Below the pieces are notes generated by a model. It did not search any database. It saw only the letters and a list, made by a program, of their open reading frames with translations, and was not told the origin of the DNA. A program made the position numbers and the translations under genes. A stretch of DNA of 64,000 nt from an uncultured Fimbriimonadaceae bacterium (GTDB taxonomy: Bacteria > Armatimonadota > Fimbriimonadia > Fimbriimonadales > Fimbriimonadaceae), in assembly GCA_937961665.1 (NCBI GenBank), contig CALGMO010000082.1:2122-66121 (forward strand), read 5' to 3'. Shown one piece after another: positions 1 through 54,985 of the stretch (its first letter is position 1; every line of letters starts with the position of its first letter).

Positions 1-368
1 CCATCCCCGAGCTGTATGTGGACGGCGACCTCGGCGAGGGCGAGGCCGTCCTCCGGTCGCAGGCTTGGATCGAGACCCTGCGGCGCGGCGCGCCCGATCC
101 CGGAACCAGGTGCATCGCGGCCACCGTCGCCGGTGTGGACATCCACCTCCCGATCGCCGGGCTGGTCGACGAGCAGAAGGAGAGGGAGAGGCTCGCCAAG
201 GAGGAGGAGAAGCTGCTCGCCGACCTCGCCCGCTGCGAGGCGCGGCTCGGGAACCCGCAGTTCGTCGAGCGGGCCAAGCCCGAGGTGGTGGAGAAGGAGC
301 GACGCGCCAAGCAGGAGCTGGAAGCCAGCCTCGAGAAGGTCCGCCGACGGAGAGCCCTCTTCGGCTAG
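1..368 (+). CDS. valS: Valyl-tRNA synthetase, C-terminal coiled-coil fragment (5' end lies outside the window)
   Basis: The frame is open from the window edge. The tail ...LPIAGLVDEQKERERLAKEEEKLLADLARCEARLGNPQFVERAKPEVVEKERRAKQELE... is the typical ValS C-terminal coiled coil. TAG stop at 366-368. Confidence 0.85.
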   Translation, partial: IPELYVDGDLGEGEAVLRSQAWIETLRRGAPDPGTRCIAATVAGVDIHLPIAGLVDEQKERERLAKEEEKLLADLARCEARLGNPQFVERAKPEVVEKERRAKQELEASLEKVRRRRALFG

Positions 369-1198
369 TTCGAATCCACCTGGAACCCGGATGGCCCGGC
401 CTCGAACACGGCCGTGCCTTGGCGGTCCGTCCGCCAGACCCGCGCGCCGGACGCCGCCACCCTTCGCAGGGTCTCGGCGGAGGGGTGTCCGTACGGGTTG
501 TTCCTTCCGACGCTGAACACCACCCAGCTCGGGCGCAGCGCCCGGAGAAGGCCCTCCCCCGTCGACGAGCGCGAGCCGTGGTGCCCGGCTTTGAGCACCT
601 GGACCGGCGCCCCTGCGAACCGTCGCAGAGCCGATCCTTCCGCCTCGATCGGAGCGTCGCCCGTGAGCACGGCCGAACTTGGGCCACCCCGGATCCTCAA
701 CATGAGCGAGCCGGCGTTGTCCTCCGGAAGCGTCTCCGCAACCGCAACCTCCAGCCGGAAGCGCCCCAAATCGATCTCGTCGCCGTCGGCCAGCGGGATC
801 AGCCTCCCGGCGCCCACCTCCCTGCTCAGCGTCGCGAGCTCCGGCCTCTCGGCAAAACGCCGCGGGGTGGCGATCGCTCCGATCGGATAGGCCCGCCCGA
901 TGCCTCCCAACCCTCCGATGTGATCCGAGTCGGGGTGGGTGATCAGCACGAGATCCACGCGGTCCACCCCGAGCCTCCTCAGCTCTGGGACGGCCAGCCG
1001 CTCGCCCGCGTCCCAGTCCTCGTTCGCCGGCGCGGCGTCGATCAAAATCGTGGTACCTTCGTTCTGAAACACGGCACAGTCACCCTGACCCACGGCCAGG
1101 AACGCCAAGCGCGTGGGCTTCGGCTCGAGCAGGCCCCAGAGGAACCCGGCGGCGAGCCCCACCAGACCGAGGGCGATCATTCGGGATTCGAATCCCAT
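365..1198 (-). CDS. comEC: ComEC/Rec2 C-terminal part: one TM helix plus a metallo-beta-lactamase domain (separate ORF)
   Basis: Only the last 277 aa of the 707-aa track ORF look real (MGFESRMIALGLVGLAAGFLWGLL...). It has the MBL motif LVLITHPDSDHIGG and a later GHHGS. ATG at 1196-1198 is preceded by GGAGGGAGGA. The upstream 430 aa are Arg/Gly-rich shadow. Confidence 0.8.
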   Translation of the reverse strand: MGFESRMIALGLVGLAAGFLWGLLEPKPTRLAFLAVGQGDCAVFQNEGTTILIDAAPANEDWDAGERLAVPELRRLGVDRVDLVLITHPDSDHIGGLGGIGRAYPIGAIATPRRFAERPELATLSREVGAGRLIPLADGDEIDLGRFRLEVAVAETLPEDNAGSLMLRIRGGPSSAVLTGDAPIEAEGSALRRFAGAPVQVLKAGHHGSRSSTGEGLLRALRPSWVVFSVGRNNPYGHPSAETLRRVAASGARVWRTDRQGTAVFEAGPSGFQVDSN

Positions 1199-2583
1199 GG
1201 CTTCGGATCCTCCCTCCAGAGAGCGAGCATCGAGGCGTACGCCACCAGCAGCCAGCCGGCCCCGAACTCCGGCACGCGCGGAGCCGCAGCCTCCCAAGCG
1301 CCGAGCCAGTCCACGATGCCCACCAGCCACTCGGTCATCGGCGCCACGACCAAACGCATCGCGGCGGCCGCCACCTCGGGGAAGATGCCGGCTACGGAGG
1401 CGGCCGCAAGCGACCCCACCACGACGGGACCGACGCTGAATGCGATCAGGAGGTTCGACGCCACCGACATCAGCGGAACCTGGCCGAAGTGGTACGCGAC
1501 GAGAGGCGCCGATACAGCGCTGGCGACCACCGACGCTCTGCCCAAGGAGACCACCGAGGCCCTCGCGCGCTCCCTCAGCGTGTCGCCGGTAGGCCATCGG
1601 CCGCCGAACATCGCGAGGCCCATCACGGTTGCGAACGACAGCTGAAACCCCAGGTCCCAAGCGAGCCAAGGTTCGGCGATCAGGAACGCCAGAGCCGTGA
1701 GAGAGGTCACGGCCACGGCGTCCGGCTCCCTCCGCCATAGGTAGGCGCTCTGCAGGCCCAGAACCAATGCGACCGATCGGACGATGGGCGCCTGCAGGCC
1801 GGCGGCTAACGCGTAACCGGCCAGAGCAAGGGCGGCCAGCGCGAGCTGCGCGGCACGCGGCACCGGCAGCAGCGCCGTCAGCCCCAGCACGGCGAACGCC
1901 ACCACCGCCGCGTGCAACCCGGAGGCCGACACGATGTGCACGGTGCCTGTCAGCCTCAGGTCCCTCTGAAACTCCTTGGACAGCTCGCCGCGGACGTTGA
2001 ACAGCAGCGCGTCGACCGACTCCGCCAGTCCCAGCCCCAGCGCCCGCGAGGTGAAGTCCAAGAACGCGCGCCGCACCGCGATCGCCGAGCGAACCGCCTC
2101 GCTTCCGGTCCGAATCCACCTCAACGATCCACGGGGCTTCCAGCGACCGACCACGCCCCGCTTGCACCAGGCACCCTGCTCCGCCTCGTTCAACGGCTCG
2201 ACGACCCCGAGGCCCTCCAGCCGATCTCCCGGCGCGACGAGGGACCCCTTCGGCAGCGCCAGAAGCAATCGGCCCCACGAGGCCCGCGCCACCACCCACT
2301 CCCTGCCTGCGGAAGGACGCGACACCGTCTCCACCACGACGCTGCCTTGGAAGAACTCCCTTTCGTTCAGGATCAGGCTTGGAATCTTGAACGCAACCGA
2401 CCAACCCGCCAGAAAGGTCGCCGCCGCCAGCGCGCCGCGCCACCTGCCGAGCCAAGCGGCGAGGGCCAGCGCCGGGACGAAGAGCCACGGCGACTCGATC
2501 GCGAACAGGCCGAGGGCGTAGGCCAGCGTGAGCCAGAGGGACGGCCTAGCTCGGATCGGACCGGCCATGGGAGCGCTTCGCAA
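1177..2583 (-). CDS. comEC: ComEC/Rec2 N-terminal part: DUF4131-like region plus polytopic competence channel domain
   Basis: 468-aa ORF with many TM helices. The segment LRLTGTVHIVSASGLHAAVV is typical of the ComEC competence domain. It ends at a TGA 22 nt inside the next ORF. The start could be the internal Met at 2568. Confidence 0.8.
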   Translation of the reverse strand: MRSAPMAGPIRARPSLWLTLAYALGLFAIESPWLFVPALALAAWLGRWRGALAAATFLAGWSVAFKIPSLILNEREFFQGSVVVETVSRPSAGREWVVARASWGRLLLALPKGSLVAPGDRLEGLGVVEPLNEAEQGAWCKRGVVGRWKPRGSLRWIRTGSEAVRSAIAVRRAFLDFTSRALGLGLAESVDALLFNVRGELSKEFQRDLRLTGTVHIVSASGLHAAVVAFAVLGLTALLPVPRAAQLALAALALAGYALAAGLQAPIVRSVALVLGLQSAYLWRREPDAVAVTSLTALAFLIAEPWLAWDLGFQLSFATVMGLAMFGGRWPTGDTLRERARASVVSLGRASVVASAVSAPLVAYHFGQVPLMSVASNLLIAFSVGPVVVGSLAAASVAGIFPEVAAAAMRLVVAPMTEWLVGIVDWLGAWEAAAPRVPEFGAGWLLVAYASMLALWREDPKPWDSNPE

Positions 2584-2968
2584 GCCGCCTTTCGGCGATC
2601 TCCCGGATGCTCAAGCCCTCGGTGTCCGCGCGGCGTAGGGCGCTCCGCGTCGGCTCCGGCTGGGGCGTGTCCGAAACGACGAAAGGTCTCACCCCGAACC
2701 GAATCTCCTTGAACAGATCGGCCTCGCCGGCGAGTTCGTTGAGCCGAAGCAGAATCTGATCCCTCTGCATGCGCAGCTCTTGGGCCCAGGAGGAGCCGGC
2801 CACCGCCACCCACACGGTGCCCTTATCGTACCGGTCCGGGTGGCTCTTGCGCGCCACCACGGGGCCCACCACCTCCGGCCACCTTCGAAGAACGGACAGC
2901 GCGCGGGCCTTCCGCACCACCTCGGGCCGACCGAGCGCCTCCGCGATCCAGTCCTGAACCCGCTTCAC
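2546..2968 (-). CDS. DUF721 / DciA-like protein
   Basis: The C-terminal 140 aa of the 542-aa track ORF read VKRVQDWIAEALG...LRRWPEVVGPVVARKSHPDRYDKGTVWVAVAGSSWAQELRMQRDQILLRLNE...IRFGVRP, the pattern of DUF721 proteins that usually follow recF. The GTG start overlaps the recF stop (GTGA, 2965-2968). Confidence 0.75.
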   Translation of the reverse strand: MKRVQDWIAEALGRPEVVRKARALSVLRRWPEVVGPVVARKSHPDRYDKGTVWVAVAGSSWAQELRMQRDQILLRLNELAGEADLFKEIRFGVRPFVVSDTPQPEPTRSALRRADTEGLSIREIAERRLAKRSHGRSDPS

Positions 2969-4089
2969 CTCGCCTCCACGCGCCCGGATCGTACCAGAAA
3001 CAGCCTGGCCCGTCGGCGAACCTCCGGCGACACCAGATCCAGGTCGGTGCAGGTCAGCACCGCCTGCCCTGCGCGCTCGAGCACCCACTCGGCCAGCCTC
3101 TCCCGGCGGCTCTCGTCCAGGTCGCTCAGGATGTCGTCGAGCAGCAGCAGCGGAGGCAGGCCCCGCTCCCGGCGCTCCAGCTCCAGGGTTCCGAGCTTGA
3201 TCGCCAGCGCGGCGGTGCGCTGCTGCCCCTGGCTGCCGAAGGCGCGAGCATCCCGACCGCCGACCTCGATCCGGACGTCGTCTCGGTGCGGTCCTGCTGT
3301 GGTGCCGCCTCGGGCGACGTCGACCGCCCTGTTGCGCCGGAAAAGCTCGAGCAGTTCGTCGGGCGTGCGAGCGTCGTCCTTCTGCTGGTACGCGAGCCGC
3401 AGCGACTCTCCGGAACCCATGTGCCGTTGCACCTCGCCGGCGAGCGGCTCCAAATCGGCCCAGAAACGGCCCCGGAAGGCCCGCAGAGGGGCCCCGTGCT
3501 CGGCCATGTGGTGCTCCCAGGGTTCGAACGCCTCCGCCGCCACAAAGCCCTCCTGCGCGCTCCTCAGCAGGGCGTTTCGCTGCTCCAGCGCCCGCTTGTA
3601 CTGCGCGAAGTGGTGCAGGTACAGGCCGGACAGCTGGCTGAGCTCCAGGTCCATGAACGACCGGCGCACGGATGGCTCTCCGGTCAGGATCGGCAGGTCC
3701 AGCAGGCTGGCGCAGACGCTGGGCAACCGCCCGATGATGTCCGCGGCGCGGCGCAGGGGCAGACCGTTGAGCGACACCCGCTTGGCGGCCCCGCGCTCCA
3801 GCTTCACGGCCACCTCGGTTCGGGTGCCCAGCACCTCCGCGGCCACCCAAGCGCCCGCCTCTCCCTCCCGGATCGCTTCGGCGTCCCTCGAGCCGCGCAG
3901 CAGCCGCGTGGTCGACAGCAGGTGGAGCGCCTCGAGAAAGTTCGTCTTGCCCTGCGCGTTGGCCCCGAAGAACACGTTCAGGCCGTCGCCCAGCTCCACC
4001 TCCTCGTCGGCGTAGTTCCGGAAGTTCCTGAGCCGCACGACGCGGGCTCCCGCCACAGGGGCGGGCTTGTCCACGGCTTCCGGAATCAA
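2965..4089 (-). CDS. recF: DNA replication and repair protein RecF
   Basis: Walker A GANAQGKTNFLEAL, signature-like FGSQGQQRTAALAIKL and Walker B LLLLDDILSDLDESRR. Length 374 aa. Confidence 0.92.
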   Translation of the reverse strand: MIPEAVDKPAPVAGARVVRLRNFRNYADEEVELGDGLNVFFGANAQGKTNFLEALHLLSTTRLLRGSRDAEAIREGEAGAWVAAEVLGTRTEVAVKLERGAAKRVSLNGLPLRRAADIIGRLPSVCASLLDLPILTGEPSVRRSFMDLELSQLSGLYLHHFAQYKRALEQRNALLRSAQEGFVAAEAFEPWEHHMAEHGAPLRAFRGRFWADLEPLAGEVQRHMGSGESLRLAYQQKDDARTPDELLELFRRNRAVDVARGGTTAGPHRDDVRIEVGGRDARAFGSQGQQRTAALAIKLGTLELERRERGLPPLLLLDDILSDLDESRRERLAEWVLERAGQAVLTCTDLDLVSPEVRRRARLFLVRSGRVEAR

Positions 4090-4348
4090 GCCATACCTCC
4101 TTCTGAAGATCTTCTCTTTCTATTGGCGCCGCGCCCGGCTGTGGAAAAGTCGCCGCGGCTCGGGGAAAGTACAACTTTGCGGAGCGGTTTCAGGTTCGAC
4201 AGAGAGCCACGGGACGGTTGAGGGGCTGTGGAAAACTCAGTGGACAACGGCGCGATCCGTGCAGGTTCGCAGACGGATGGGCGCACGGTTTTCCCGCACG
4301 GATGGGCGCGCGAACGTTTCAAACGCTTTTCCACCATCGTTGTCCACA
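4067..4348. promoter_or_regulatory. Cluster of six DnaA-box-like 9-mers (candidate oriC or DnaA-binding control region)
   Basis: TTGTCCACG 4067-4075. TGTGGAAAA 4140-4148 and 4227-4235. AGTGGACAA 4239-4247. TTTTCCACC 4327-4335. TTGTCCACA 4340-4348. All read directly from the sequence, and there is a locally AT-rich stretch at 4095-4126. Confidence 0.6.
4273..4309. repeat. 12-bp direct repeat ACGGATGGGCGC x2 (4273-4284 and 4298-4309) between the DnaA-box doublets
   Basis: Exact match read directly from the sequence. Function unknown. Confidence 0.9.
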
Positions 4349-4407
4349 GCTTGGGGACCGGACCTCCGCACGGGCTACGAAGAGCCGGGCGGATAGAATG
4401 GTAGACC

Positions 4408-29458: not shown

Positions 29459-29643
29459 TCGTCCTGCTGTCGGCCGTCCTCTGGATCTCCGGGTGCGGGC
29501 AACCCGCCCGGAATCTGGAGGCGGAGCAGACCCAGCCTCCGGCCGACCTCGAGGCCGGCAAGAGCGCCAAGACCATCGAGGAGTGGGCCCGGGCCAACCC
29601 CAACAACGGCTTGCCGGGCAGCGGCGAGGACGGGGGCAAGTAG
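29455..29643 (+). CDS. Small lipoprotein (62 aa), hypothetical
   Basis: The GTG start overlaps the preceding stop (GTGA 29455-29458). Lipobox LWISGC, followed by a hydrophilic tail. Confidence 0.5.
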   Translation: MIVLLSAVLWISGCGQPARNLEAEQTQPPADLEAGKSAKTIEEWARANPNNGLPGSGEDGGK

Positions 29644-29663
29644 GTCCCCGTCGCATGGAACGC

Positions 29664-29685
29664 GGGCGCGCCGCAAGGCGCGCCC
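29664..29685. terminator. Perfect 9-bp GC hairpin with GCAA tetraloop between convergent genes (candidate bidirectional terminator)
   Basis: GGGCGCGCC (29664-29672), GCAA, GGCGCGCCC (29677-29685). Only a weak T tract follows (CCTTCCGTTT). Confidence 0.5.
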
Positions 29686-29710
29686 CCTTCCGTTTGCCGC
29701 CGACGGGGAA

Positions 29711-34293: not shown

Positions 34294-35232
34294 TCAACCT
34301 CCTTCGACAGACCCGGCTGGGCGACGGGAGATTACCCCGTTGAGGGTCACCGCTCCGATCAGCAGCGCTCCGACCACCACCAGGTTCAACACGTCGTTGC
34401 TCCACCGCCAGCCGACGAACTGCCTCACCTCGTGCAGCACCGCCAGCCCGAGCGCCGTGCCGACCAGCGTGCCCCTGCCGCCGAAGATGCTCGTTCCACC
34501 GAGCACCACCGCCGTGACGACCTCCAGCTCGATGCCCGCGCCGACGTCGGCCTTGGCGGTGTTGCGCCTGGCCGTGAACAGCACGCCGGCAACCCCGGCC
34601 ATCAGCCCCGAGAACGCGTACAGCGAAGCCTTCAGACGGTCCACGTTCCACCCGCTCGCGCGCGCCGCGGACTCGCCCAGGCCGATGCCGTAGATCCGGC
34701 GTCCCAGAACGTGGCGGGCCAGCACGGCCGTTCCCGCGAGGGTGAGGGCCGCGAACAGGCCGACGGCCGTCCAGCCCTGGCCGATCCGAAGGAACGTGTC
34801 GGGAAACCCGCTGACCGGCCGGGCGGCGCTGACGCCCTCCGCCAGACCCCGGAACGCGGACATCGTGCCCAGGGTGACGATCAGCGGGTGCACCCGGAAC
34901 CGCGTGACGAACCACCCGTTGAGCGCCCCGCACAGCAGCCCCGCCGCCAGCGCGGCCGCGGCGCACGCCTCCACGGGCCACCCAGACCGGAAGCCCAGCC
35001 CGAACAGCACCGACGCCAGCGCCATGACGGAGCCGACGGAGAGATCGATGCCGCCGGTGATCACGATCAGGGTCATCGGCACCGCGAGCAGCGCGGTCTC
35101 GCCGATCTGGGGAAGCAGGCCCGACTGCACCCGCCAAGAGACGAAGGCCGGGTCGGTCCGCCAAGCCGCCACGAGCAGCGCCGCCAGAAGGGCGGCGAGA
35201 CCGGCCTCGTGCGTCGCGATGAGCCGCCTCAC
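34294..35232 (-). CDS. Sugar ABC transporter permease (RhaQ-like)
   Basis: 312 aa, polytopic, with ITGGIDLSVGSV and LGGTSIFGGRGT motifs of CUT2 permeases. The GTG start overlaps the upstream stop (GTGA 35229-35232). Confidence 0.85.
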   Translation of the reverse strand: MRRLIATHEAGLAALLAALLVAAWRTDPAFVSWRVQSGLLPQIGETALLAVPMTLIVITGGIDLSVGSVMALASVLFGLGFRSGWPVEACAAAALAAGLLCGALNGWFVTRFRVHPLIVTLGTMSAFRGLAEGVSAARPVSGFPDTFLRIGQGWTAVGLFAALTLAGTAVLARHVLGRRIYGIGLGESAARASGWNVDRLKASLYAFSGLMAGVAGVLFTARRNTAKADVGAGIELEVVTAVVLGGTSIFGGRGTLVGTALGLAVLHEVRQFVGWRWSNDVLNLVVVGALLIGAVTLNGVISRRPAGSVEGG

Positions 35233-36179
35233 GCCCGGGCCTCCCTGCGCCGTCCGGCGGCGTCCCCCATCACCGCGGCCAGAATCAGCGCGCCTTGGAT
35301 CGCCCGCTCCCAGTACAGGCTGCTCTCGCCCAGCTGAAGGAAGATCAGCACGGTCCGCACGGAGCTGAGCAGCAGCACGCCGAGCACGACCCCGAGGATC
35401 GTTCCCGTGCCGCCGCGGATCGACACTCCGCCCACCACCACGCACGTGACCACCAGGAGCTCGAAGCCCACGCCCACGCCGCTGTCGACCAGTGAGAGCC
35501 GGGGCACGCTCACCAGGGTGGCCAACGCCACCAGCAGGCCGGCCAGGCCGAACGCCGCCAGCTTCGTGCGCCCGACCGGAATGCCCGCCAGGCGCGCCGA
35601 GTCGGCGTTCGAGCCGACCGCGAACACCCGCCGTCCCCAGGCGGTGCGGTTCGCCAGAAGCCACGTGAGGGCCACCACGGCGGCGCACGCCGCGATCGGC
35701 ACCGGCACCCCGAGCACCGAGCCCGTTCCCCAGGCGCGCAGACCGTCCGGAAGGCGGGTGATCCACTTGCCGCCCATCAGAAGCTCGTTGGCGCCCTTCA
35801 GCACCGAAAGCATCCCCAGGGTGACGATGATGCTGGGCACCCTCACCAGCGACACCAGGACGCCGTTGAGCAGCCCCACCCCCAGCCCCAGGGCGAGCGT
35901 GGCCGCCACGGCCAGCGAGGGCGGAAGCCCGAGGCGGTCGGGCGACGAGAGCGTGCCCGCGACCGCGGCGCACAGACCCAGGAGCGAGCCGATCGAGATG
36001 TCGATCTCGCCGGACGCCACGACCAGCATCAGTCCACAGGCCGCGATCAAGGTCGGCGCGGCCGCCAGCATCAGGTCGGTCAGGTTGCGGGGGCTCAGAA
36101 AGGCGGGGTTGATCGCCGTGGCCAAGGCGCAAAGCAGCGCCAGAACGAGCGCGGGGCCGGGAACGCCGCGGAGCCTCAC
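35229..36179 (-). CDS. Sugar ABC transporter permease (RhaP-like)
   Basis: 316 aa, with SGEIDISIGSLL and VGGVSIRGGTGT motifs. The GTG start overlaps the ATPase stop (GTGA 36176-36179). Confidence 0.85.
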   Translation of the reverse strand: MRLRGVPGPALVLALLCALATAINPAFLSPRNLTDLMLAAAPTLIAACGLMLVVASGEIDISIGSLLGLCAAVAGTLSSPDRLGLPPSLAVAATLALGLGVGLLNGVLVSLVRVPSIIVTLGMLSVLKGANELLMGGKWITRLPDGLRAWGTGSVLGVPVPIAACAAVVALTWLLANRTAWGRRVFAVGSNADSARLAGIPVGRTKLAAFGLAGLLVALATLVSVPRLSLVDSGVGVGFELLVVTCVVVGGVSIRGGTGTILGVVLGVLLLSSVRTVLIFLQLGESSLYWERAIQGALILAAVMGDAAGRRREARA

Positions 36180-37666
36180 GCCGCTCCCTCCTCCGGGAGG
36201 ATCAGCGACAGCAGCGCCGGCTCCGAGAACTCGCTCCGGCGGAGCTCTCCGCTGATCCTGCCGCCCCGCAGCGCCACGATCCGGTCGCACAGGGCCAGCA
36301 GCTCCGGCATGTCGGAAGACGCCGCCAGCACCGCGGCACCCTCGGCGGCCAGTCGGCGGACCAGCTGGTGCACCTCGTGCTTCGCGCCGACGTCCACCCC
36401 GCGCGTCGGCTCGTCCAGCAGCAGCAGGCGCGGACCCAGGAACAGGCCCTTGGCCAGAACCACCTTCTGCTGGTTGCCTCCGCTCAGCGACGAGGCCGGG
36501 GCGCGCACGCCGGCGCACTTGATCTGCAGCAGCCGAGCCATGGCCTCCGCCCGCGCCCGCTCGGCGCCGGGCGAGATCCAGCCGAGCCGGGAGACCGCGC
36601 CGAGCGACGCCATCGACACGTTCCAGGAGACGGGCCAGGAAGGAATCAGGCCCTGGCGGTGCCGGTCCTCGGGCACCAGGGCCACGCCCGCGGCGAGGGA
36701 CGAGGGGACGCTGCCGGGCCGCAGCGCGCGGCCGCCGACCGTCGCTTTGCCCTCGCGGAAGCGCCGGAGGCCGTAGATCGCCTCCAGGAGCTCGGTGCGT
36801 CCGGCCCCGACCAACCCCGCCAAGCCGACGACCTCTCCCGAGCGCACCTCCAGACTCACGCCCTCGAACGCGCCGGGCAGGCTCAGCCCCTCGACCCGGA
36901 GCACCGGGCCGCCGGCGGCCGCGGTCTCGGTGGACGGAGCCTCGGGCACCTCCCGCCCGACCATCCTCCGGATCAGGCCGTCACGGTCCGTCTCCCGCGC
37001 GGGCAGGGTGTCCACCTTACGTCCGTCGCGCAGCACGGTGATGCGGTCGGCCAGCGCGAACACCTCGTCCAGCCGGTGGCTGACGTACAGCACCGACACG
37101 CCCCGCTCCCGCATCCGGCGGACCACGGCGAACAGCGCGTCGGTCTCGCGGGCCGAGAGCGCGGCCGTCGGCTCGTCCAGGATCAGCAGCCTGCACTCGC
37201 GCACCAGCGCGCGCGCCAAAGCCACCATCTGCCGCTGGGCCATCGGAAGCTCGCCGACCGGCCTCGCCAGCGGCAGATCCTCGCCCAGCTCCCGCAGCGC
37301 CTCCCGGGTGCGGCGCACCATCGCCCGGCGGTCGAGGAGCGGGCCGCGCCGAGGCTCCCACCCTAGGAACACGTTGTCGACGGCATCCAGGTCGGGGAAC
37401 GAAACCGGCTCCTGGTGGATGGCCGCGATGCCGGCGGCCTCGCACCGGTGCACTCCCTCGGGCAGGGGCGCTCCCAGCCAGAGGACTCGCCCCGCGCTGG
37501 GCCTTAGAGCTCCGCAGAGGATGCGGATCAGCGTGGACTTGCCCGCTCCGTTCTCTCCGCAGAGCGCGTGCACCTCTCCCTCGGCGATGTCGAGGTTGAC
37601 CCCGTCGAGCGCCCGCACGCCGCCGAAGCTCCGTCCCAAACCCTCGGTGCGAAGCAGCTCCGCCAT
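36176..37666 (-). CDS. Sugar ABC transporter ATP-binding protein with two nucleotide-binding domains (RhaT-like)
   Basis: Walker A GENGAGKST, a second NBD with GLVGAGRTE, LSGGNQQK signature and Walker B LLLLDEPTRGVD. Confidence 0.9.
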   Translation of the reverse strand: MAELLRTEGLGRSFGGVRALDGVNLDIAEGEVHALCGENGAGKSTLIRILCGALRPSAGRVLWLGAPLPEGVHRCEAAGIAAIHQEPVSFPDLDAVDNVFLGWEPRRGPLLDRRAMVRRTREALRELGEDLPLARPVGELPMAQRQMVALARALVRECRLLILDEPTAALSARETDALFAVVRRMRERGVSVLYVSHRLDEVFALADRITVLRDGRKVDTLPARETDRDGLIRRMVGREVPEAPSTETAAAGGPVLRVEGLSLPGAFEGVSLEVRSGEVVGLAGLVGAGRTELLEAIYGLRRFREGKATVGGRALRPGSVPSSLAAGVALVPEDRHRQGLIPSWPVSWNVSMASLGAVSRLGWISPGAERARAEAMARLLQIKCAGVRAPASSLSGGNQQKVVLAKGLFLGPRLLLLDEPTRGVDVGAKHEVHQLVRRLAAEGAAVLAASSDMPELLALCDRIVALRGGRISGELRRSEFSEPALLSLILPEEGAA

Positions 37667-37674
37667 CCCTCGGC

Positions 37675-37695
37675 AGGGCAGGTTACCCCTGCCCT
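37675..37695. promoter_or_regulatory. 8-bp inverted repeat AGGGCAGG/CCTGCCCT in the divergent region between the two sugar ABC operons
   Basis: Read directly: 37675-37682 and 37688-37695 with a 5-nt spacer. It could be an operator or a 5' leader hairpin. A CATAAT -10-like hexamer lies at 37745-37750. Confidence 0.3.
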
Positions 37696-37758
37696 CTTCC
37701 GGCTGGGAACCCGGTTAACGGGTGAACTCGGAACCCCGGTGTTGCATAATGGGCTTGT

Positions 37759-40161
37759 ATGCTCCGATTCCGCTCCGTCGCGGTGCTTGCAGCGTTGCCC
37801 CTGTGCGCCCTCGCGTTGGCCAAGGAGCCGGTCACCCTCCGCTTCACGGTGTGGGACGGCGACGAGTCGCTGAGGGTGATCAAGCGCATCCTGGCGCAGT
37901 TCGAGAGGGAGAACCCGGACATCCGCGTGAAGCTCGAGCCGATCACGGACTACGTCTCCTACCACCAGAAGATGATCACCATGTACGCGGCCGGCGTCGC
38001 CCCGGACGTGTGCATGATGGACATGCCGAACTTCCAGGCTCTGGCCAAGCGCGGCGCACTGGTGCCTCTGAACGACCTGATGGCCAAGACGCCCGGCTTC
38101 GACATCAAGGAGTACTACGAGCCGATCGTTCGGGCGCACAGCTACCAGGGCAAGCTATACGTCCTGCCGAGGGACATCGCCCCGATGGGCCTCGTCTACT
38201 ACAACAAGCGCCTGTTCGACGAGGCCGGCATCCCGTATCCCGACGGCACTTGGACGTGGGACTTCCAACCTCGGCCCGAGCTCCGCGAGAAGTGCTTCAC
38301 CTGGGTGATGCAGCAACTCACCAAGGTGGACAAGAACGGCAAGAAGATCCAGTGGGGGTTCGCGCCGGGATGGCCCGAGCTGTTCGCCACCACGCTCACC
38401 TACTCCTACGGCGGCCGGTACACCGACAACCCCGAGGCGCCCACCAAGGTGCTCATCAACGAGCCCAAAACGGTTAAGGCCTACCAGTTCGCCGCGGACT
38501 GCATGAACAAGTACGGCTGGATCCCCAACCAGAACGACCTGCTGGGCCAGCTGCAGTCCACGACCCAGATGCTGTTCGTGAACCAGAAGATCGCGATGTT
38601 CCAGAACGGCATCTGGGAGGTCCCGAACATGAGGAAGTACCTCAAGCCGGGCGAGAAGGGGTTCTTCGAGTGGGACATCACGCTGTTCCCGGCGTACAAG
38701 GACGGCCGGCGCGCGGCGCCAACCGGCGGATCGGGCTACGCGATCTTCACGTCGACCAAGCACCTGGACGAGGCCTGGCGCCTCACCCGCTACATGTCCG
38801 GCCCCGTGGCGATGACGTACATGGCCCAAGCCGGGATCGCCCAGCCCGCGATCCGCAAGCTGGCCCTCACCCCGGACGTGTGGCTTCCCGGACCCAACAC
38901 CCCCAAGGAGCAGCTGTACCCCTACAGCCGCATCTGGACCGACCGCGCGGTGCCCTACGTCGTGTTCAGCGAGAACGCCGACTACTGGCCCGAGGTGGGC
39001 GGACGGATGCGCGCGGGCATGGACCTGCTCTGGAACGGCCAGAAGGACGCCAAGGAGACCCTGGACCGCGGCGCGAGGGAGGCCCAGCAGCGCCTCGACG
39101 CGATCCTCAAGGAGCAGCGCAACCCGCCGTACAACTGGGTCGCGGGGGGCGTCGTCGGGCTGCTCATCGCGGCGGCCATCGCGCTGTGGGTGTTCTGGCC
39201 GGAGCGGAAGATCCGCTACACGCACCGGGAGAAGCTCGAGAGCAGGTCGGCGTTCCTGTTCGCCAGCCCTTGGATCGTCGGCATGATCGTGTTCACGCTG
39301 GGGCCGATGATCCTCTCGCTGCTGATGGGCTTCGCCGACTGGGACATCATCCGGCAGGCCAAGTGGCGCGGCCTGGGCAACTTCCACGAGGCGTTCTTCG
39401 TGGATCCGGTCTTCTGGAAGTCGCTCCGCGTGACGTTCGTGTACACGTTCGTGGCGGTGCCGCTGGGCCTGATCGGCTCCCTGGCGCTCGCGCTGCTGAT
39501 GAACCAGAAGGTGCGGGGCATCCCGCTGTTCCGGACTTTCTACTACATCCCCTCGCTCGCTTCGCTGGTGGCCGCCTCGCTGATCTGGCGCCGCGTGTTC
39601 CAGCCGGAGGGCGGCCTGCTGAACACCCTGCTCTACAGCCCGGTGGGCGAGTGGCTGGGCATCCCGAAGCTGCTCGCCGAGTGGGCCCAGGTGCCGGCCG
39701 GCCAGCAGATCAACTGGCTGGGAACGGAGCAGACGGCTCTGCCGGCTCTGATCATCATGTCCCTGTGGGGCATCGGCGGAGGGATGGTGATCCTTCTGGC
39801 GGGCCTGCAGGGGATTCCGCAGTTCTACTACGAGGCCGCGACGCTCGACGGGGCAGGCATCTGGGACCGCTTCAAGGCCGTCACCCTGCCGCTGCTCAGC
39901 CCGTCGCTGTTCTTCTCGCTGGTCACCGGTTTCATCGGCTCGTTCCAGGTGTTCACCCAGGCGTTCGTGATGACCGGAGGCGGGCCGAACGACGCCACGA
40001 GGTTCTTCATGTTCCACCTGTATTCCCAGGCTTTCCAGAACCTGAGGATGGGATACGCCAGCGCCCTGGCCTGGATCCTGTTCTTCATCATCCTGATCTT
40101 CACGCTCATCCAGTTCAAGATGAGCAAGTGGGTGTACTACGAGGCTGAGGTGAAGAAGTGA
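37759..40161 (+). CDS. Fusion protein: CUT1-type extracellular solute-binding protein + linker TM helix + MalF/UgpA-type ABC permease
   Basis: Single 800-aa ORF. Signal peptide MLRFRSVAVLAALPLCALALAKE. SBP family-1-like body to about aa 455. TM helix WVAGGVVGLLIAAAIALWVFW (aa 460-480, nt 39136-39198). The permease has the EAA-loop region YEAATLDGAGIWDRFKAVTLPLL. Confidence 0.8.
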   Translation: MLRFRSVAVLAALPLCALALAKEPVTLRFTVWDGDESLRVIKRILAQFERENPDIRVKLEPITDYVSYHQKMITMYAAGVAPDVCMMDMPNFQALAKRGALVPLNDLMAKTPGFDIKEYYEPIVRAHSYQGKLYVLPRDIAPMGLVYYNKRLFDEAGIPYPDGTWTWDFQPRPELREKCFTWVMQQLTKVDKNGKKIQWGFAPGWPELFATTLTYSYGGRYTDNPEAPTKVLINEPKTVKAYQFAADCMNKYGWIPNQNDLLGQLQSTTQMLFVNQKIAMFQNGIWEVPNMRKYLKPGEKGFFEWDITLFPAYKDGRRAAPTGGSGYAIFTSTKHLDEAWRLTRYMSGPVAMTYMAQAGIAQPAIRKLALTPDVWLPGPNTPKEQLYPYSRIWTDRAVPYVVFSENADYWPEVGGRMRAGMDLLWNGQKDAKETLDRGAREAQQRLDAILKEQRNPPYNWVAGGVVGLLIAAAIALWVFWPERKIRYTHREKLESRSAFLFASPWIVGMIVFTLGPMILSLLMGFADWDIIRQAKWRGLGNFHEAFFVDPVFWKSLRVTFVYTFVAVPLGLIGSLALALLMNQKVRGIPLFRTFYYIPSLASLVAASLIWRRVFQPEGGLLNTLLYSPVGEWLGIPKLLAEWAQVPAGQQINWLGTEQTALPALIIMSLWGIGGGMVILLAGLQGIPQFYYEAATLDGAGIWDRFKAVTLPLLSPSLFFSLVTGFIGSFQVFTQAFVMTGGGPNDATRFFMFHLYSQAFQNLRMGYASALAWILFFIILIFTLIQFKMSKWVYYEAEVKK

Positions 40162-41072
40162 GCGCCGTCCAAGAGACCGTGCCCGCGAAGTTCGACGCCG
40201 AGGCGGCCGAGCGGTTCCGGCGGGCCGCCAAGCGCGCGGAGACGATCGACCGGATTCTGAAGGTGCTGCTGTGGGTGGTGCTGTTCTCCGGCGTGATCCT
40301 GGCGATGCTGCCGCTGTGGATCATGCTGATGATGTCGCTGAAGACGCCCAACGAGATCGCCAACAGCGCCGCGTGGGCGTGGCCCAGGGACCTCACCTGG
40401 GACAACTTCCGCGAGGTCCTCACCAACCCCAACGCGCCGTTTCTGCTGTTCTTCCGGAACTCGGTGATCATCAGCACCCTGACCACCGCGGGCGTGGTGC
40501 TGACCTCGGCGATGGTCGCCTATCCGTTCGCCCGGCTGAAGTTCCGGGGCAGGGACCGCCTGTTCATCCTTCTGCTCAGCACGATGATGCTGCCGGGCGT
40601 GGTCACGATGATCCCGACCTACGTGATGTACGCCCAGATCAAGTGGGTCAACACGTTCTATCCGCTGATCGTGCCGGCCTGGTTCGGGGGCGGTGCGTTC
40701 AACATCTTCCTGCTCCGGCAGTTCTTCATGGGCATCCCTCGCGACCTGGACGAGGCCGCGATCCTCGACGGCGCCAACCACGCGACGATCTTCTGGCGCG
40801 TGATTCTGCCGAACGCGGGAGCGGCGCTGGCCACGGTGGGGGTGTTCTGCTTCATCTACAACTGGCGCGACTTCATGGGGCCGCTCATCTACCTGAACAG
40901 CCCCGACATGCAGACGCTGGAGGTCGGTCTGCGCACCTACCAGAGCCTGCAGTCCGAGCAGTGGCACCTGCTGATGGCCGGCTCCGTGCTGGTCATGCTG
41001 CCTCTGTTCGTGATCTTCCTGATCGGGCAGAAGTACTTCGTGAAGGGCATCGTGATGAGCGGCATCAAGTGA
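40158..41072 (+). CDS. CUT1 sugar ABC transporter permease (MalG/UgpE-like)
   Basis: EAA loop DEAAILDGANHATIFWRVILPN, six predicted TM segments. The GTG start overlaps the upstream stop (GTGA 40158-40161). Confidence 0.88.
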   Translation: MSAVQETVPAKFDAEAAERFRRAAKRAETIDRILKVLLWVVLFSGVILAMLPLWIMLMMSLKTPNEIANSAAWAWPRDLTWDNFREVLTNPNAPFLLFFRNSVIISTLTTAGVVLTSAMVAYPFARLKFRGRDRLFILLLSTMMLPGVVTMIPTYVMYAQIKWVNTFYPLIVPAWFGGGAFNIFLLRQFFMGIPRDLDEAAILDGANHATIFWRVILPNAGAALATVGVFCFIYNWRDFMGPLIYLNSPDMQTLEVGLRTYQSLQSEQWHLLMAGSVLVMLPLFVIFLIGQKYFVKGIVMSGIK

Positions 41073-44283: not shown

Positions 44284-44739
44284 ATGGGCGCAACGATGAG
44301 GTTCGACGGCAGGATCGAGCGCGTCGGCGCGAGAGCCCTGATCGCGCTGCCCGAAGAACCGCGCGAGGTCTGGGGCGACCGTCCGAGGTACGACGTCGCG
44401 GGATCGGTCGGCGGCAAGCCTTACCGCGGAAGGGTGGTCTTTCTGGACGGGCGCGCGTGGCTGCCGACCGGACCCGCCTTCCTCCGAGACGCCGGCCTCG
44501 CCCTCGGGCAGACGGTGAGCGTGGAGGTTGGTCTGGAGTGGCCCAGCCTCGAGGACCTCGAGCCTGACTTCCGGGCGGCGATCGAGGCCAGCCCCGCCGC
44601 GCGCGCCGCCTTCGAGGGGATGAACACCTTCTGCCGCAGGAACTGGGTTCGGTACGTGGCGGAGGCCAAGCGGCCGGAGACGCGCGCCCGGAGGATCGCC
44701 GAGGCGGTCCAGCGCCTCGAGGAAGGAGACGCCGGCTAG
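44284..44739 (+). CDS. DUF1905 / YdeI (OmpD-associated) family protein
   Basis: The N-terminal beta-barrel-like part MRFDGRIERVG...KPYRGRVVFLDGRAWLP and the C-terminal FCRRNWVRYVAEAKRPETRARRIAEAV are typical of YdeI-like proteins. Confidence 0.7.
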   Translation: MGATMRFDGRIERVGARALIALPEEPREVWGDRPRYDVAGSVGGKPYRGRVVFLDGRAWLPTGPAFLRDAGLALGQTVSVEVGLEWPSLEDLEPDFRAAIEASPAARAAFEGMNTFCRRNWVRYVAEAKRPETRARRIAEAVQRLEEGDAG

Positions 44740-46109
44740 CCCGAGGGCTTCTTGCCCTGGTCCAGGTGCACGACGGTGCCCATGAGCGTCTTCTCGGCCT
44801 CTCCGGTCTGGCCGCTCTGCAGGGCCCGAAGCGCCTGGGTCACCTCCTGCGCCTCCGCGACTCGGCCTTCGGCCAGAAGCAGGGCCTGCGTCTTCTGGAG
44901 CTCGGCCACCGCGGCCTGGGGGCTCAGCGCCTGCGTCTTCATGCCCAGGATGGTGCGCTCGACGGCGCGCGACGCCGCGGCGACCTGCGCGGCGGAGGCC
45001 ACGCGCGGGTCGGGCGGCACCGAGTAGCGCGCCGGATCGGCGGTGAACTCCATCACGAAGTCCAGATCCACCGTCGCGTTGCCGCTGTTCAGGCAGTCCT
45101 CGTACTCCAGAGTGCCGGAGGCCACCCGGTACCAGCCCAGCGGGTGGTTGGGAAACTCGAGGTCGAGCACGTGCTCGATCGCGCTGCCGCGCTCGAGATC
45201 GGCAAGGGGAACGTCGAACTCGCGCTGGCCCGGCGAGGGGGTCTGGCCGGCGACGCTGCGCGCCTCCACCCAGCGCGCCAGTTTCAACCGCAGCCGAAGG
45301 TTGCGGGCCACGACGGTCATGAGCCGCTCGATCTCCGCGCGGAAGATCTCGGGGATCAGCTCCGGGCGCGACACGTAGTAGTGGTTGCCGCCGGCGCGCT
45401 TGGCCATGGCGGCGAGAAGCTCCTCGTTGTAGTCGGGCCCAAAGCCGAGCAGGGTGAGCGTCGTGCCGCGCTCGCGCACCGCCGCCGCGGCGTTCACCAG
45501 GCTCGGGAAGTCGCGCACCCCAACGGTCGGCTCTCCGTCGGTCAGGAGCAGCATGCGCGAGGCCCGGCCGGTCTCCTGCGCCTGCACGATCTGCTGCAAG
45601 CCCAGGTTCACTCCGTCGTAAAGATTGGTCGTGTTGCCGATGGTCAGGCGGGCGATGCCGTCCAGGATCGGCTGCTTCTGGGTCACCCTCTGGGGCGGCA
45701 TCAGCACCTGGGCCGTCTCGTCGAACGCCACGATGCTCAGCACGTCGTTCGGCGTGAGCAGGTCCACCACGTAGCGGCAGGCCTGCTTCACGTATTCGAG
45801 CGGCGGGCCCTCCATCGACCCGGACCGGTCGATGACCAGACACAGGTTCATGGGCGTCCTCGCCGCCGGCCCGAGGAGCGTGTCCCCTTGGGCCGCGGTC
45901 AGGGCCAGCAGGAACTGCTCGCGAGCCGGACCGTTGGCCATCGTGGCCTCGCGGCTCGGCACGACCTCGGCCCTCAGCGCCTGCAGAGGGGCCATGGCCG
46001 TGGTGCGCATCCCCGCGCCGAGCCCGGAGGCCATCGCCTGCGTCCTGGCGGGATCGGCTCCGGGAGGGGGCGCGGCCTGCGTCTTGTTGGGGTCGAAGTT
46101 GGGGTTCAT
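44736..46109 (-). CDS. von Willebrand factor A (vWA) domain protein with complete MIDAS motif
   Basis: Starts at MNPNFDPNK. MIDAS LVIDRSGSMEG, then ...NTTNLYDG... and LLLTDGEPT. An uncharacterised C-terminal half of about 200 aa follows. The ATG overlaps the upstream stop (ATGA 46106-46109). Confidence 0.85.
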   Translation of the reverse strand: MNPNFDPNKTQAAPPPGADPARTQAMASGLGAGMRTTAMAPLQALRAEVVPSREATMANGPAREQFLLALTAAQGDTLLGPAARTPMNLCLVIDRSGSMEGPPLEYVKQACRYVVDLLTPNDVLSIVAFDETAQVLMPPQRVTQKQPILDGIARLTIGNTTNLYDGVNLGLQQIVQAQETGRASRMLLLTDGEPTVGVRDFPSLVNAAAAVRERGTTLTLLGFGPDYNEELLAAMAKRAGGNHYYVSRPELIPEIFRAEIERLMTVVARNLRLRLKLARWVEARSVAGQTPSPGQREFDVPLADLERGSAIEHVLDLEFPNHPLGWYRVASGTLEYEDCLNSGNATVDLDFVMEFTADPARYSVPPDPRVASAAQVAAASRAVERTILGMKTQALSPQAAVAELQKTQALLLAEGRVAEAQEVTQALRALQSGQTGEAEKTLMGTVVHLDQGKKPSG

Positions 46110-53935: not shown

Positions 53936-54684
53936 TCACCCTCAAGTCCCCCGAACAGATCGAGAAGATGCGGGCCGCCGGCCGTCTGCTGGCCAAGGCC
54001 CTGCGTGCGATGGGCGACGCGATCGTCCCCGGGCGCACCACGACCGCCGACCTCGACGCCCTCGCCGAGGAGATCGTTCGGGCCGAAGGCGGCGTGCCGG
54101 CGTTCAAGGGTTATCGCGGCTTCCCGGCCAGCGTCTGCGCGTCCGTCAACGAGGAGGTGGTCCACGGGATTCCCTCGCCGGAGCGGGTGCTGCAGCCAGG
54201 GGACATCGTGGGCCTCGACCTCGGCGTGACGCTCGACGGATGGAACGCCGACGCCGCCTGGACGTTCCCCGTGGGCGAGGTGGACCCCGCCGTCCAGCGC
54301 CTGCTCAACGTCACCCGGGAGAGCCTGTTCCAGGGAATCGCCAAGGCCCGCGTCGGCAATCGGATCGGCGACGTGGCCTCGGCCATCCAGCGGTACGTCG
54401 AGAAGAACGGCTATTCGGTCGTGCGGGACCTCGTCGGGCACGGCATCGGCCGGTCGATCCACGAGGAGCCCAGCGTGCCGAACTTCGGCAGGCCGGGGCA
54501 GGGGCCGGTGCTCCGGGAGGGCATGACGATCTGCATCGAGCCGATGGTGAACATGGGCACGTGGAAGGTCCGCACCCTGCAGGACCAGTGGACCATGGTC
54601 GCGGCGGACGGAAAGCCGTCGGCGCACTTCGAGCACACGGTCGCGATCACCAAGGACGGGCCGCTCATTCTCACGCTTCCCTAG
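53932..54684 (+). CDS. map: Type I methionine aminopeptidase
   Basis: The GTG start overlaps the adk stop (GTGA 53932-53935). Motifs VCASVNEEVVHGIP, DLGVTLDGWNAD, GHGIGRSIHEEP and EPMV..., FEHT. Confidence 0.92.
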   Translation: MITLKSPEQIEKMRAAGRLLAKALRAMGDAIVPGRTTTADLDALAEEIVRAEGGVPAFKGYRGFPASVCASVNEEVVHGIPSPERVLQPGDIVGLDLGVTLDGWNADAAWTFPVGEVDPAVQRLLNVTRESLFQGIAKARVGNRIGDVASAIQRYVEKNGYSVVRDLVGHGIGRSIHEEPSVPNFGRPGQGPVLREGMTICIEPMVNMGTWKVRTLQDQWTMVAADGKPSAHFEHTVAITKDGPLILTLP

Positions 54685-54730
54685 CCTCGTCGGCCCGCAT
54701 CGGCTACAATAGGCGAGATCCAGGGGGAAT

Positions 54731-54985
54731 ATGCGCAGAGGCCGACCGCACAAGCCGCAGCAGGACAAAGAGAAGGGAATCGAGGTCGAGGGGACCGTCG
54801 TGGAGAACGTGGGCAACGCCCAGTTCAAGATCCGCTTGGACGAGGGGGACGGCGTGGAGGTGCTCGGGCACGTGAGCGGCAAGATGAGGATGCACTGGAT
54901 CCGCATCCTGCCGGGCGACCGCGTGCGCGTCGAGCTGTCTCCGTACGACCTCACGCGCGGACGCATCGTCTACCGATACCGCTGA
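54731..54985 (+). CDS. infA: Translation initiation factor IF-1 (with a ~12-aa basic N-terminal extension)
   Basis: The S1-like core [68 protein letters not shown] is unmistakable IF-1. Confidence 0.93.

Follow-up and report, generated by a model that had tools for sequence, protein, structure and literature searches.

A rigidly spaced DnaA-box module ahead of recF in Fimbriimonadales, a candidate DnaA-controlled promoter

A 64-kb stretch of DNA (hereafter the window), from a genome that its RecF homologues place in the order Fimbriimonadales (Armatimonadota), carries a dense cluster of DnaA boxes in and beside the non-coding gap upstream of recF, and this locus raises the question of whether such a cluster marks the chromosomal replication origin or serves DnaA in some other capacity. 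DnaA is both the replication initiator and a transcription factor, and its regulon is known for few model species; RecF takes part in replication-gap repair, and DciA, encoded directly behind recF in the window, is the helicase operator of most bacteria. The initial annotation proposed a candidate replication origin, or else a site that titrates DnaA or serves regulation, with a DnaA-regulated recF promoter as the fallback. Our analysis indicates that the fallback fits best: with a probability of roughly 0.6, the module belongs to the recF-dciA-comEC operon as its DnaA-controlled promoter or DnaA-box cluster and is not a chromosomal origin. This reading draws on the architecture of the module, its conservation, its linkage to recF, and the lack of a skew switch at the site.

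The DnaA-box cluster and its conservation

All six 9-mers previously listed for the locus were found exactly at the positions given for them, namely, TGTGGAAAA at 4140-4148 and 4227-4235, AGTGGACAA at 4239-4247, TTTTCCACC at 4327-4335, TTGTCCACA at 4340-4348, and TTGTCCACG at 4067-4075. The claim that such boxes are improbable in GC-rich DNA also held, as the 300-bp span contains six boxes (at most one mismatch), compared with two in the best of 100 Markov-1 simulations. The motif TTNTCCACA matched three times in the 64 kb, always within the gap, against 0.31 matches expected, and 0 of 100 shuffles yielded three; TTNTCCAC matched 13 times against 2.9 expected, and 6 of the 13 matches fell within 4067-4348. 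A chance origin of the clustering is excluded by these counts, to which the orientation pattern and the conservation across more than 30 lineages add further weight. In 0.5 Mb of family DNA, no other box cluster was present, leaving the recF module as the sole one.

The conservation of the module was assessed in two sets of relatives. The close set comprised three relatives with shared synteny and 87-89% RecF identity, whose gaps align with that of the window at 83% mean identity. The distant set, at 46-60% identity, was assembled from exact-protein look-ups and a metagenome scan with a lineage-specific RecF fragment (56 loci), and a second protein search led to RecF of the type strain Fimbriimonas ginsengisoli Gsoil 348 and its locus in the complete genome CP007139.1. 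The alignment was ungapped, anchored on the box nearest recF, and covered ~31 distinct lineages. More than 30 lineages, with RecF-fragment identities of 46-86%, and F. ginsengisoli as well share the same architecture, with spacing kept at the base-pair level. The invariant elements among the close relatives were four boxes, GGGAAAA as the core of a fifth, weak one, AAACTTGTACTTTCCCC, TGAACCTG, and the Shine-Dalgarno sequence and TTG start codon of recF; the sequence between these elements diverged. The position-weight consensus of the family, T-T-[T/A]-T-C-C-A-C-A, is the canonical DnaA box.

Read from its distal end toward recF, the module extends over ~310 bp and consists of one to three outward-pointing distal boxes, a box doublet, a central 13-mer, a proximal box, a spacer, an AT-rich tract, and a downstream reverse box. 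The two distal boxes of the window, TTGTCCACA (4340-4348, plus strand) and, 4 bp from it, TTTTCCACC (4327-4335, plus strand), point away from recF; the former is conserved in the relative L082 and degenerate in L083, and the latter is invariant in the close relatives. The initial annotation had the distal and the central doublets facing each other, but when boxes are read in the 5'-TTATCCACA-3' direction, they point apart. In other lineages, the equivalent far end holds one to three reverse boxes located at -131 to -230. A weak box-like site, TTTTCCCGC (4289-4297, plus strand; GGGAAAA on the recF strand), lies between the two copies of a 12-bp direct repeat, ACGGATGGGCGC, which is indeed present at 4273-4284 and 4298-4309, as first reported, but proved to be clade-specific, being shared with the nearest relative only and gone at 87% RecF identity. 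The GGGAAAA sequence is invariant in the close relatives, in contrast to the repeat that flanks it, and for this site 10 of 31 lineages gave a reverse match to the position-weight matrix at -131 to -140 from the proximal box. Since no relative other than the nearest one has it, the repeat was rejected as a functional iteron. In L083, a different short direct repeat (CCGCTCC) surrounds the same conserved GGGAAAA, and the flanking-repeat arrangement, rather than the repeat sequence, may thus be what is kept.

The doublet is formed by TTGTCCACT (box 1; 4239-4247) and, after a 3-bp gap, TTTTCCACA (box 2; 4227-4235), both on the minus strand and directed toward recF. With forward boxes at -100 and -88 relative to the proximal box, it constitutes a 9+3+9 bp tandem whose first member occupies the same position in 28 of 31 lineages and whose second does so in all 31. 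The central 13-mer, TTTCAGGTTCGAC on the plus strand (4188-4200), has a GAACCT core on the recF strand; across the family it reads TTTGAACCTGAAA or the exact reverse complement, and 22 of 29 lineages have it in one orientation or the other. In 21 of them, the GAACCT/GAATCT core (or the reverse complement of it) lies exactly 38 bp after the start of box 2, and in one more it lies at +39. A fixed element that tolerates either orientation could be the site of a DNA-bending protein. Its resemblance to a tRNA T-loop (GGTTCGA core) and to a GTTC/GAAC SOS-box half-site was also considered and found no support. Closer to recF, the motif AAAGTTGTACTTTCCCC (recF strand, 4162-4179) is invariant in the close relatives, and a motif of the form AAACTT[AG]TAC recurs in other lineages ~20-25 bp upstream of forward boxes.

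With its start 87 bp past that of box 2, the proximal box, TTTTCCACA at 4140-4148 (minus strand), is directed into the AT-rich tract. It was found in every lineage, as either TTTTCCACA or TTTTCCCCA, at 86-90 bp past box 2 and mostly at 87-88 bp. Behind it follows a 15-bp GC-rich spacer, GCCGGGCGCGGCGCC (recF strand, 4125-4139), the length of which varies between 12 and 15 bp across all lineages, and then the AT-rich tract, which begins with AATAGAAAGAGAAGATCTTCAGAAGGAGG on the recF strand (4090-4124, minus strand); within it lie five consecutive NAN triplets, the hexamer AGATCT (4107-4112), and AGGAGG (4096-4101), the Shine-Dalgarno sequence. All lineages possess at this position an AT-rich tract of TAA repeats with a 6-bp period, enriched in GATC (16 observed versus 5.7 expected) and AGATCT (5 observed versus 0.5 expected). 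The locally AT-rich stretch singled out in the initial annotation turned out to be the least stable 30-mer of the 64 kb (4093-4123; dG -36.0, compared with a window mean of -49.5 and a standard deviation of 2.9). At a distance of 15 bp from the proximal box, the same 30-mer includes the recF ribosome-binding site and the putative promoter region. We propose that the tract provides the promoter -10 region and the 5' untranslated region of recF, and it could also be an unwinding element.

Across the tract, a downstream reverse box, TTGTCCACG (4067-4075, plus strand), lies in recF codons 5-8 and converges on the proximal box. The initial annotation had placed a box in the first codons of recF, and this placement is correct; the box is, however, no stray, as it matches a reverse box that 19 of 31 lineages keep at a fixed distance from the proximal box (+70 to +79, typically ~72 bp), with no other downstream position in use. 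Its spacing follows the proximal box and not the start codon, since the recF start floats between +42 and +117, and in some lineages the GTG start of recF falls inside the reverse box. RecF of Fimbriimonadales carries an N-terminal extension of 12-25 residues ahead of the FRNY motif (window codons 1-17 = 4040-4089). In this otherwise variable extension, only the codons in which the reverse box is written are conserved (DGE from GATGGGGAAA is one example), and the constraint therefore appears to act on the DNA and not on the protein.

A putative recF promoter between convergent boxes

The position of the putative promoter follows from the short distance between the proximal box and the gene. 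In most lineages, ~34 bp separate this box from the recF ATG, without a Shine-Dalgarno sequence, and a -10-like hexamer (NNTAAG/TATAAA; e.g., TATAAA, CATAAG, GGTAAG) is found 5-7 nt before the ATG. Taken together, these features imply that the putative recF promoter would have to overlap the boxes and lie inside the tract between the two convergent ones; such a placement of the predicted promoter would be operator geometry. The window differs in having a leader: the TCCACA that forms the 3' half of its proximal box is situated 17 bp upstream of a -10-like TAGAAA. The linkage of the module to recF points in the same direction. The module adjoins the 5' end of recF in all lineages, and the upstream gene varies: an acyl-CoA synthetase gene occupies that place in the window and an ABC transporter gene does so in L088, and L086, L087, L098, and F. 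ginsengisoli have a gene for an RDD protein there. An element that stays fixed to recF while its upstream neighbor changes has the expected appearance of a recF cis-regulatory element.

We infer DnaA binding, the promoter position, and the sign of regulation from the arrangement of these sites, and the following mechanism would accommodate them. DnaA would bind the canonical boxes, for which the family consensus is TTTTCCACA, and the recF promoter would reside within the AT-rich TAA-repeat tract. The proximal box would cover the -35 position, its center being at about -39 from the ATG in lineages that lack a leader; in the window, the predicted order would be the TCCACA half, 17 bp, the TAGAAA hexamer, and then a 5' untranslated region with AGGAGG. 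The second, convergent box would lie ~72 bp downstream, in the first recF codons. The doublet 87-88 bp upstream, the outward distal boxes, and a factor or bend at the 13-mer could cooperatively stabilize DnaA at both sites, and RNA polymerase would be occluded or blocked by the bound complex. How strongly recF is transcribed, and in most lineages also dciA and comEC behind it, would then follow the level of active DnaA. Repression at high DnaA-ATP would be the most likely outcome, and class-II-type activation at low occupancy may also occur. As a by-product, the module would hold ~7-8 DnaA molecules.

Several observations weigh against this promoter reading. A strict sigma-70 scan of the gap detected no promoter. 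Seven to eight boxes over 310 bp together with a fixed central element exceed what simple repression needs, the sequence of box, GC-rich spacer, and A-rich tract matches the E. coli layout from R1 to the DNA unwinding element, and the AT-rich tract is the easiest-melting site in the 64 kb. A minus-to-plus skew change does occur in a few lineages (L109, and weakly the window clade), and skew in the class has been described as 'jagged' (PMC4072686). Moreover, L086 retains the module without dciA behind recF, so the link to dciA is not universal.

If the favored reading is correct, the module would place recF, and in most lineages dciA too, behind a precisely built DnaA control region found throughout the order. 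This would suggest a direct feedback between the initiator and the functions of helicase loading and fork repair.

Skew and unwinding at the module and the rival readings

The module could instead be the chromosomal oriC of the lineage, separated from dnaA and dnaN, in which case the arrays and the convergent boxes would open the tract at the recF start and the neighboring DciA would load the helicase. We regard this as very improbable, although a number of features would suit it: the cluster adjoins the least stable 30-mer of the window, its two box arrays have opposite orientations, its polarity and spacing are those found between R1 and the 13-mers of E. coli, the tract is enriched in GATC and AGATCT, and recF and dciA are ancestral origin-proximal genes. 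Furthermore, no oriC was identified in the sole complete genome of the class Fimbriimonadia, that of F. ginsengisoli, because the search was confined to perfect TTATCCACA (PMC4072686). In that genome, dnaA is located at position 1, dnaN at 5.018 Mb, and recF at 1.929 Mb, and the jagged skew yields an origin at 5.13 Mb, between dnaN and dnaA, with no recognizable oriC (PMC4072686). A distance of ~2 Mb therefore separates the F. ginsengisoli module (~1.93 Mb) from the sole origin estimate published for the class, and the module lies megabases away from dnaA and dnaN, adjacency to which is usual for an origin but not obligatory. The claim that neither gene lies nearby in the window was borne out as well: it contains neither a DnaA signature nor any homologue of DnaA or DnaN, and a search for these homologues within 10 kb at ~60 family loci found none.

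The skew profiles argue most strongly against an origin. Firmicutes loci with a dnaA-linked origin, taken from among the matches listed of a full-length RecF alignment scan, served as a positive control, and 51 of 53 such loci showed negative raw skew on the left and positive raw skew on the right within ~10 kb. Per-gene skew at third codon positions (GC3 skew) and raw skew of the complete F. ginsengisoli genome were both negative on either side of the module. L098, a 1.4-Mb contig with the full module and the strongest skew in the set, was uniformly positive (raw +0.145 on the left and +0.159 on the right), L093 and L110 were negative on both sides save for a blip confined to the recF operon, and L134 was near zero on both sides. 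A sustained sign change at the module was seen in L109, and the window clade exhibited a step from ~0 to ~+0.12, two observations that would favor an origin. Within the window, however, orientation-corrected GC3 skew was about -0.007 over the 60 kb on the synthetase side, to the right of the module, and the cumulative minimum fell at 49-51 kb. The initial origin proposal had been made subject to a skew extremum at ~4.1-4.4 kb; with the minimum elsewhere and no flip in F. ginsengisoli, that proposal is not upheld.

A raw comparison of left and right flanks gave an apparent systematic minus-to-plus shift at the module. Its interpretation as a general replichore switch was rejected by the per-gene and sliding profiles, as the apparent upshift is mostly due to a positive blip confined to the recF operon; the replication component of left-flank skew averages -0.005, that is, about zero and not negative. 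In addition, most genes to either side of the module share one orientation in L086, L087, and L088, which also speaks against an origin between them. The blip itself is a local feature of the recF-dciA-comEC sense strand, with a GC3 skew of +0.1 to +0.5 in nearly every lineage, whatever the flanking skew; it spans 365-4089 in the window and ~9.8-13.7 kb in L093, L110, L134, and L146.

Unwinding elements gave no support for an origin of the Bacillus type. The basal unwinding system was defined, following PMC8287927, as a box at most 16 bp from at least three DnaA-trios in the Bacillus polarity, and when every box was checked in both directions, this canonical polarity was not found. The run of five NAN triplets shares its strand with 5'-TTTTCCACA-3', opposite to the arrangement in the Paenibacillus dnaA-dnaN spacer used as a reference (TTATCCACA..CTATTACTA). 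The number of boxes, just 6-8, likewise tells against an origin. We conclude that the module is very probably not the chromosomal origin, and we reserve a slim chance for that role because skew is weak and jagged in these genomes.

It is possible, although unlikely, that the module is an origin-like DnaA assembly site with a mainly non-transcriptional function, either a titrating or nucleotide-state locus resembling datA, DARS, or the DnaA-box clusters (DBCs) of Bacillus subtilis, or a relic or auxiliary origin resembling oriCII. Such a site would account for boxes that are more numerous, and long-range spacing that is stricter, than a simple operator requires, for origin-like features without a skew switch, and for a fixed 13-mer accepted in either orientation, as expected of a bending-protein site; datA and DARS2 use IHF. 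The oriCII precedent similarly extends over the start of a gene at its 5' end and shows family-wide conservation (PMC13438810), and the DBCs of B. subtilis restrain initiation (PMC3245932). On the other hand, a titration or rejuvenation site needs neither a constant fusion to the 5' end of recF nor boxes over its promoter and first codons. This alternative overlaps the promoter reading, since oriCII and several DBCs also regulate a neighbor, and sequence alone does not separate titration or recharging, or an auxiliary or relic origin, from the promoter reading. We judge it decidedly unlikely that the module is a functional unwinding site of the origin type, whether as the real oriC of the window clade or as an oriCII-type auxiliary or relic origin in all Fimbriimonadales. 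In that event, the unwinding element would overlap the recF start, directly ahead of the helicase-operator gene dciA, and the origin architecture of Fimbriimonadia would be identified, with an E. coli-like polarity from box to unwinding element in a deep Terrabacteria lineage. An absence of any DnaA role, with the 9-mers bound by another regulator or reflecting chance or composition, is extremely improbable given the canonical family consensus and the clustering, orientation pattern, and conservation described above; moreover, Rfam searches of the gap at a permissive threshold and of the whole window matched no family, and no tRNAs were found.

The box consensus of the lineage (TTTTCCACA or TTTTCCCCA) and the recF module furnish a testable, and probably excludable, oriC candidate for Fimbriimonadia, and the family position-weight matrix can be used to locate the true origin.

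Known systems and gene context

DnaA-box clusters outside origins are already known as a kind. The DBCs of B. subtilis outside oriC (yydA-yycS, ywlC-ywlB, yqeG-sda, and others) regulate neighboring genes and restrain initiation (PMC3245932), and like the module, they are groups of several DnaA boxes that occupy intergenic promoter regions and do not coincide with the origin where unwinding takes place. DnaA represses ywlC and yydA and activates sda (PMC3245932), whereas regulation by the module is predicted. The module further differs in preceding recF-dciA, in belonging to another phylum, and in its rigid order-wide spacing, from the doublet over 87-88 bp to the proximal box and over ~72 bp to the in-gene convergent box; in addition, most DBCs are origin-proximal, whereas the module is apparently far from the origin (~2 Mb in F. 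ginsengisoli). The oriCII of Pseudomonas aeruginosa, upstream of gidA, can replicate a plasmid without being the chromosomal origin, and DnaA regulates the operon there (PMC13438810). Both elements are origin-like, family-conserved box clusters over the 5' end of a conserved 'origin-neighborhood' gene. However, the boxes of oriCII are situated at least 130 bp upstream of the -35 and act positively, whereas those of the module lie over the putative -35 and the early transcribed region, and autonomously replicating sequence activity was demonstrated for oriCII (PMC13438810), whereas the module is known from its sequence.

The left end of E. coli oriC resembles the module in structure: in each, a 5'-TTATCCACA-type box is followed on one strand by a GC-rich spacer of 13-15 bp and an A-rich tract, and both tracts show CAATAGAA..AGATCT. 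Our check of E. coli MG1655 gave TTATCCACA, a 13-bp GC-rich spacer from R1 to the first 13-mer, and then CTAATAAGAGATC ACAATAGAACAGATC; the counterpart in the window is TTTTCCACA, a 15-bp spacer, and then CAATAGAAAGAGAAGATC. The two loci also share further boxes beyond a fixed intervening element (in E. coli, the IHF site between R1 and R5M) and two opposed arrays. Unlike E. coli oriC, the module has no skew switch, fewer boxes, a tract that lies over a gene start, and a convergent box beyond that tract. As for transcriptional control, dnaA autoregulation and nrdAB of E. coli resemble the proposed function in that boxes lie at or near the core promoter and the DnaA-ATP level sets the transcription of replication and repair genes (see also PMC13438810), whereas a recF-dciA-comEC target operon and a multi-box, long-range architecture have, to our knowledge, not been described before. 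Our literature search found no earlier description of a recF-linked, order-wide, rigidly spaced module with an in-gene box and an orientation-free central element.

The gene calls of the initial annotation (recF, a DciA-like gene, and an acyl-CoA synthetase) were right according to Pfam. The recF gene (2965-4089, minus strand; SMC_N, AAA_23, and related domains) begins with a TTG at 4089, has a 12-residue N-terminal extension, and finds its homologues in Fimbriimonadales. The start of dciA (2546-2968, minus strand; PF05258, E = 1.7e-18) overlaps the recF stop codon, as it also does in L001, L082, and L083. The end of dciA is in turn overlapped by comEC (1177-2583, minus strand; Competence domain, PF03772), after which comes an open reading frame with a metallo-beta-lactamase domain. 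Most lineages retain the recF-dciA-comEC synteny. On the other side of the gap, the AMP-binding acyl-CoA synthetase gene starts with an ATG at 4408 on the plus strand. A conserved TAGAAT (4394-4399) lies 8 nt before this ATG, where no Shine-Dalgarno sequence is present, and this suggests a leaderless or near-leaderless transcript; most relatives likewise have no Shine-Dalgarno sequence before recF.

The gap beside recF is real, and a terminator scan of it was empty. It may not strictly be the only sizeable non-coding gap of the window, as had been supposed, for 29459-29710 (252 bp) is likewise devoid of an open reading frame with high GC content at third codon positions (GC3). Three further regions, 34332-36175, 44421-46105, and 53936-54887, gave no clean gene call by third-position GC content. 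A search of these four regions for a box cluster found none. At 37000-41000, the G+C content is 0.65-0.67, compared with ~0.70-0.72 in the rest of the window, and the genes at 37750-41072 have an unusually low first-position GC content (0.57-0.58) together with a GC3 of 0.95.

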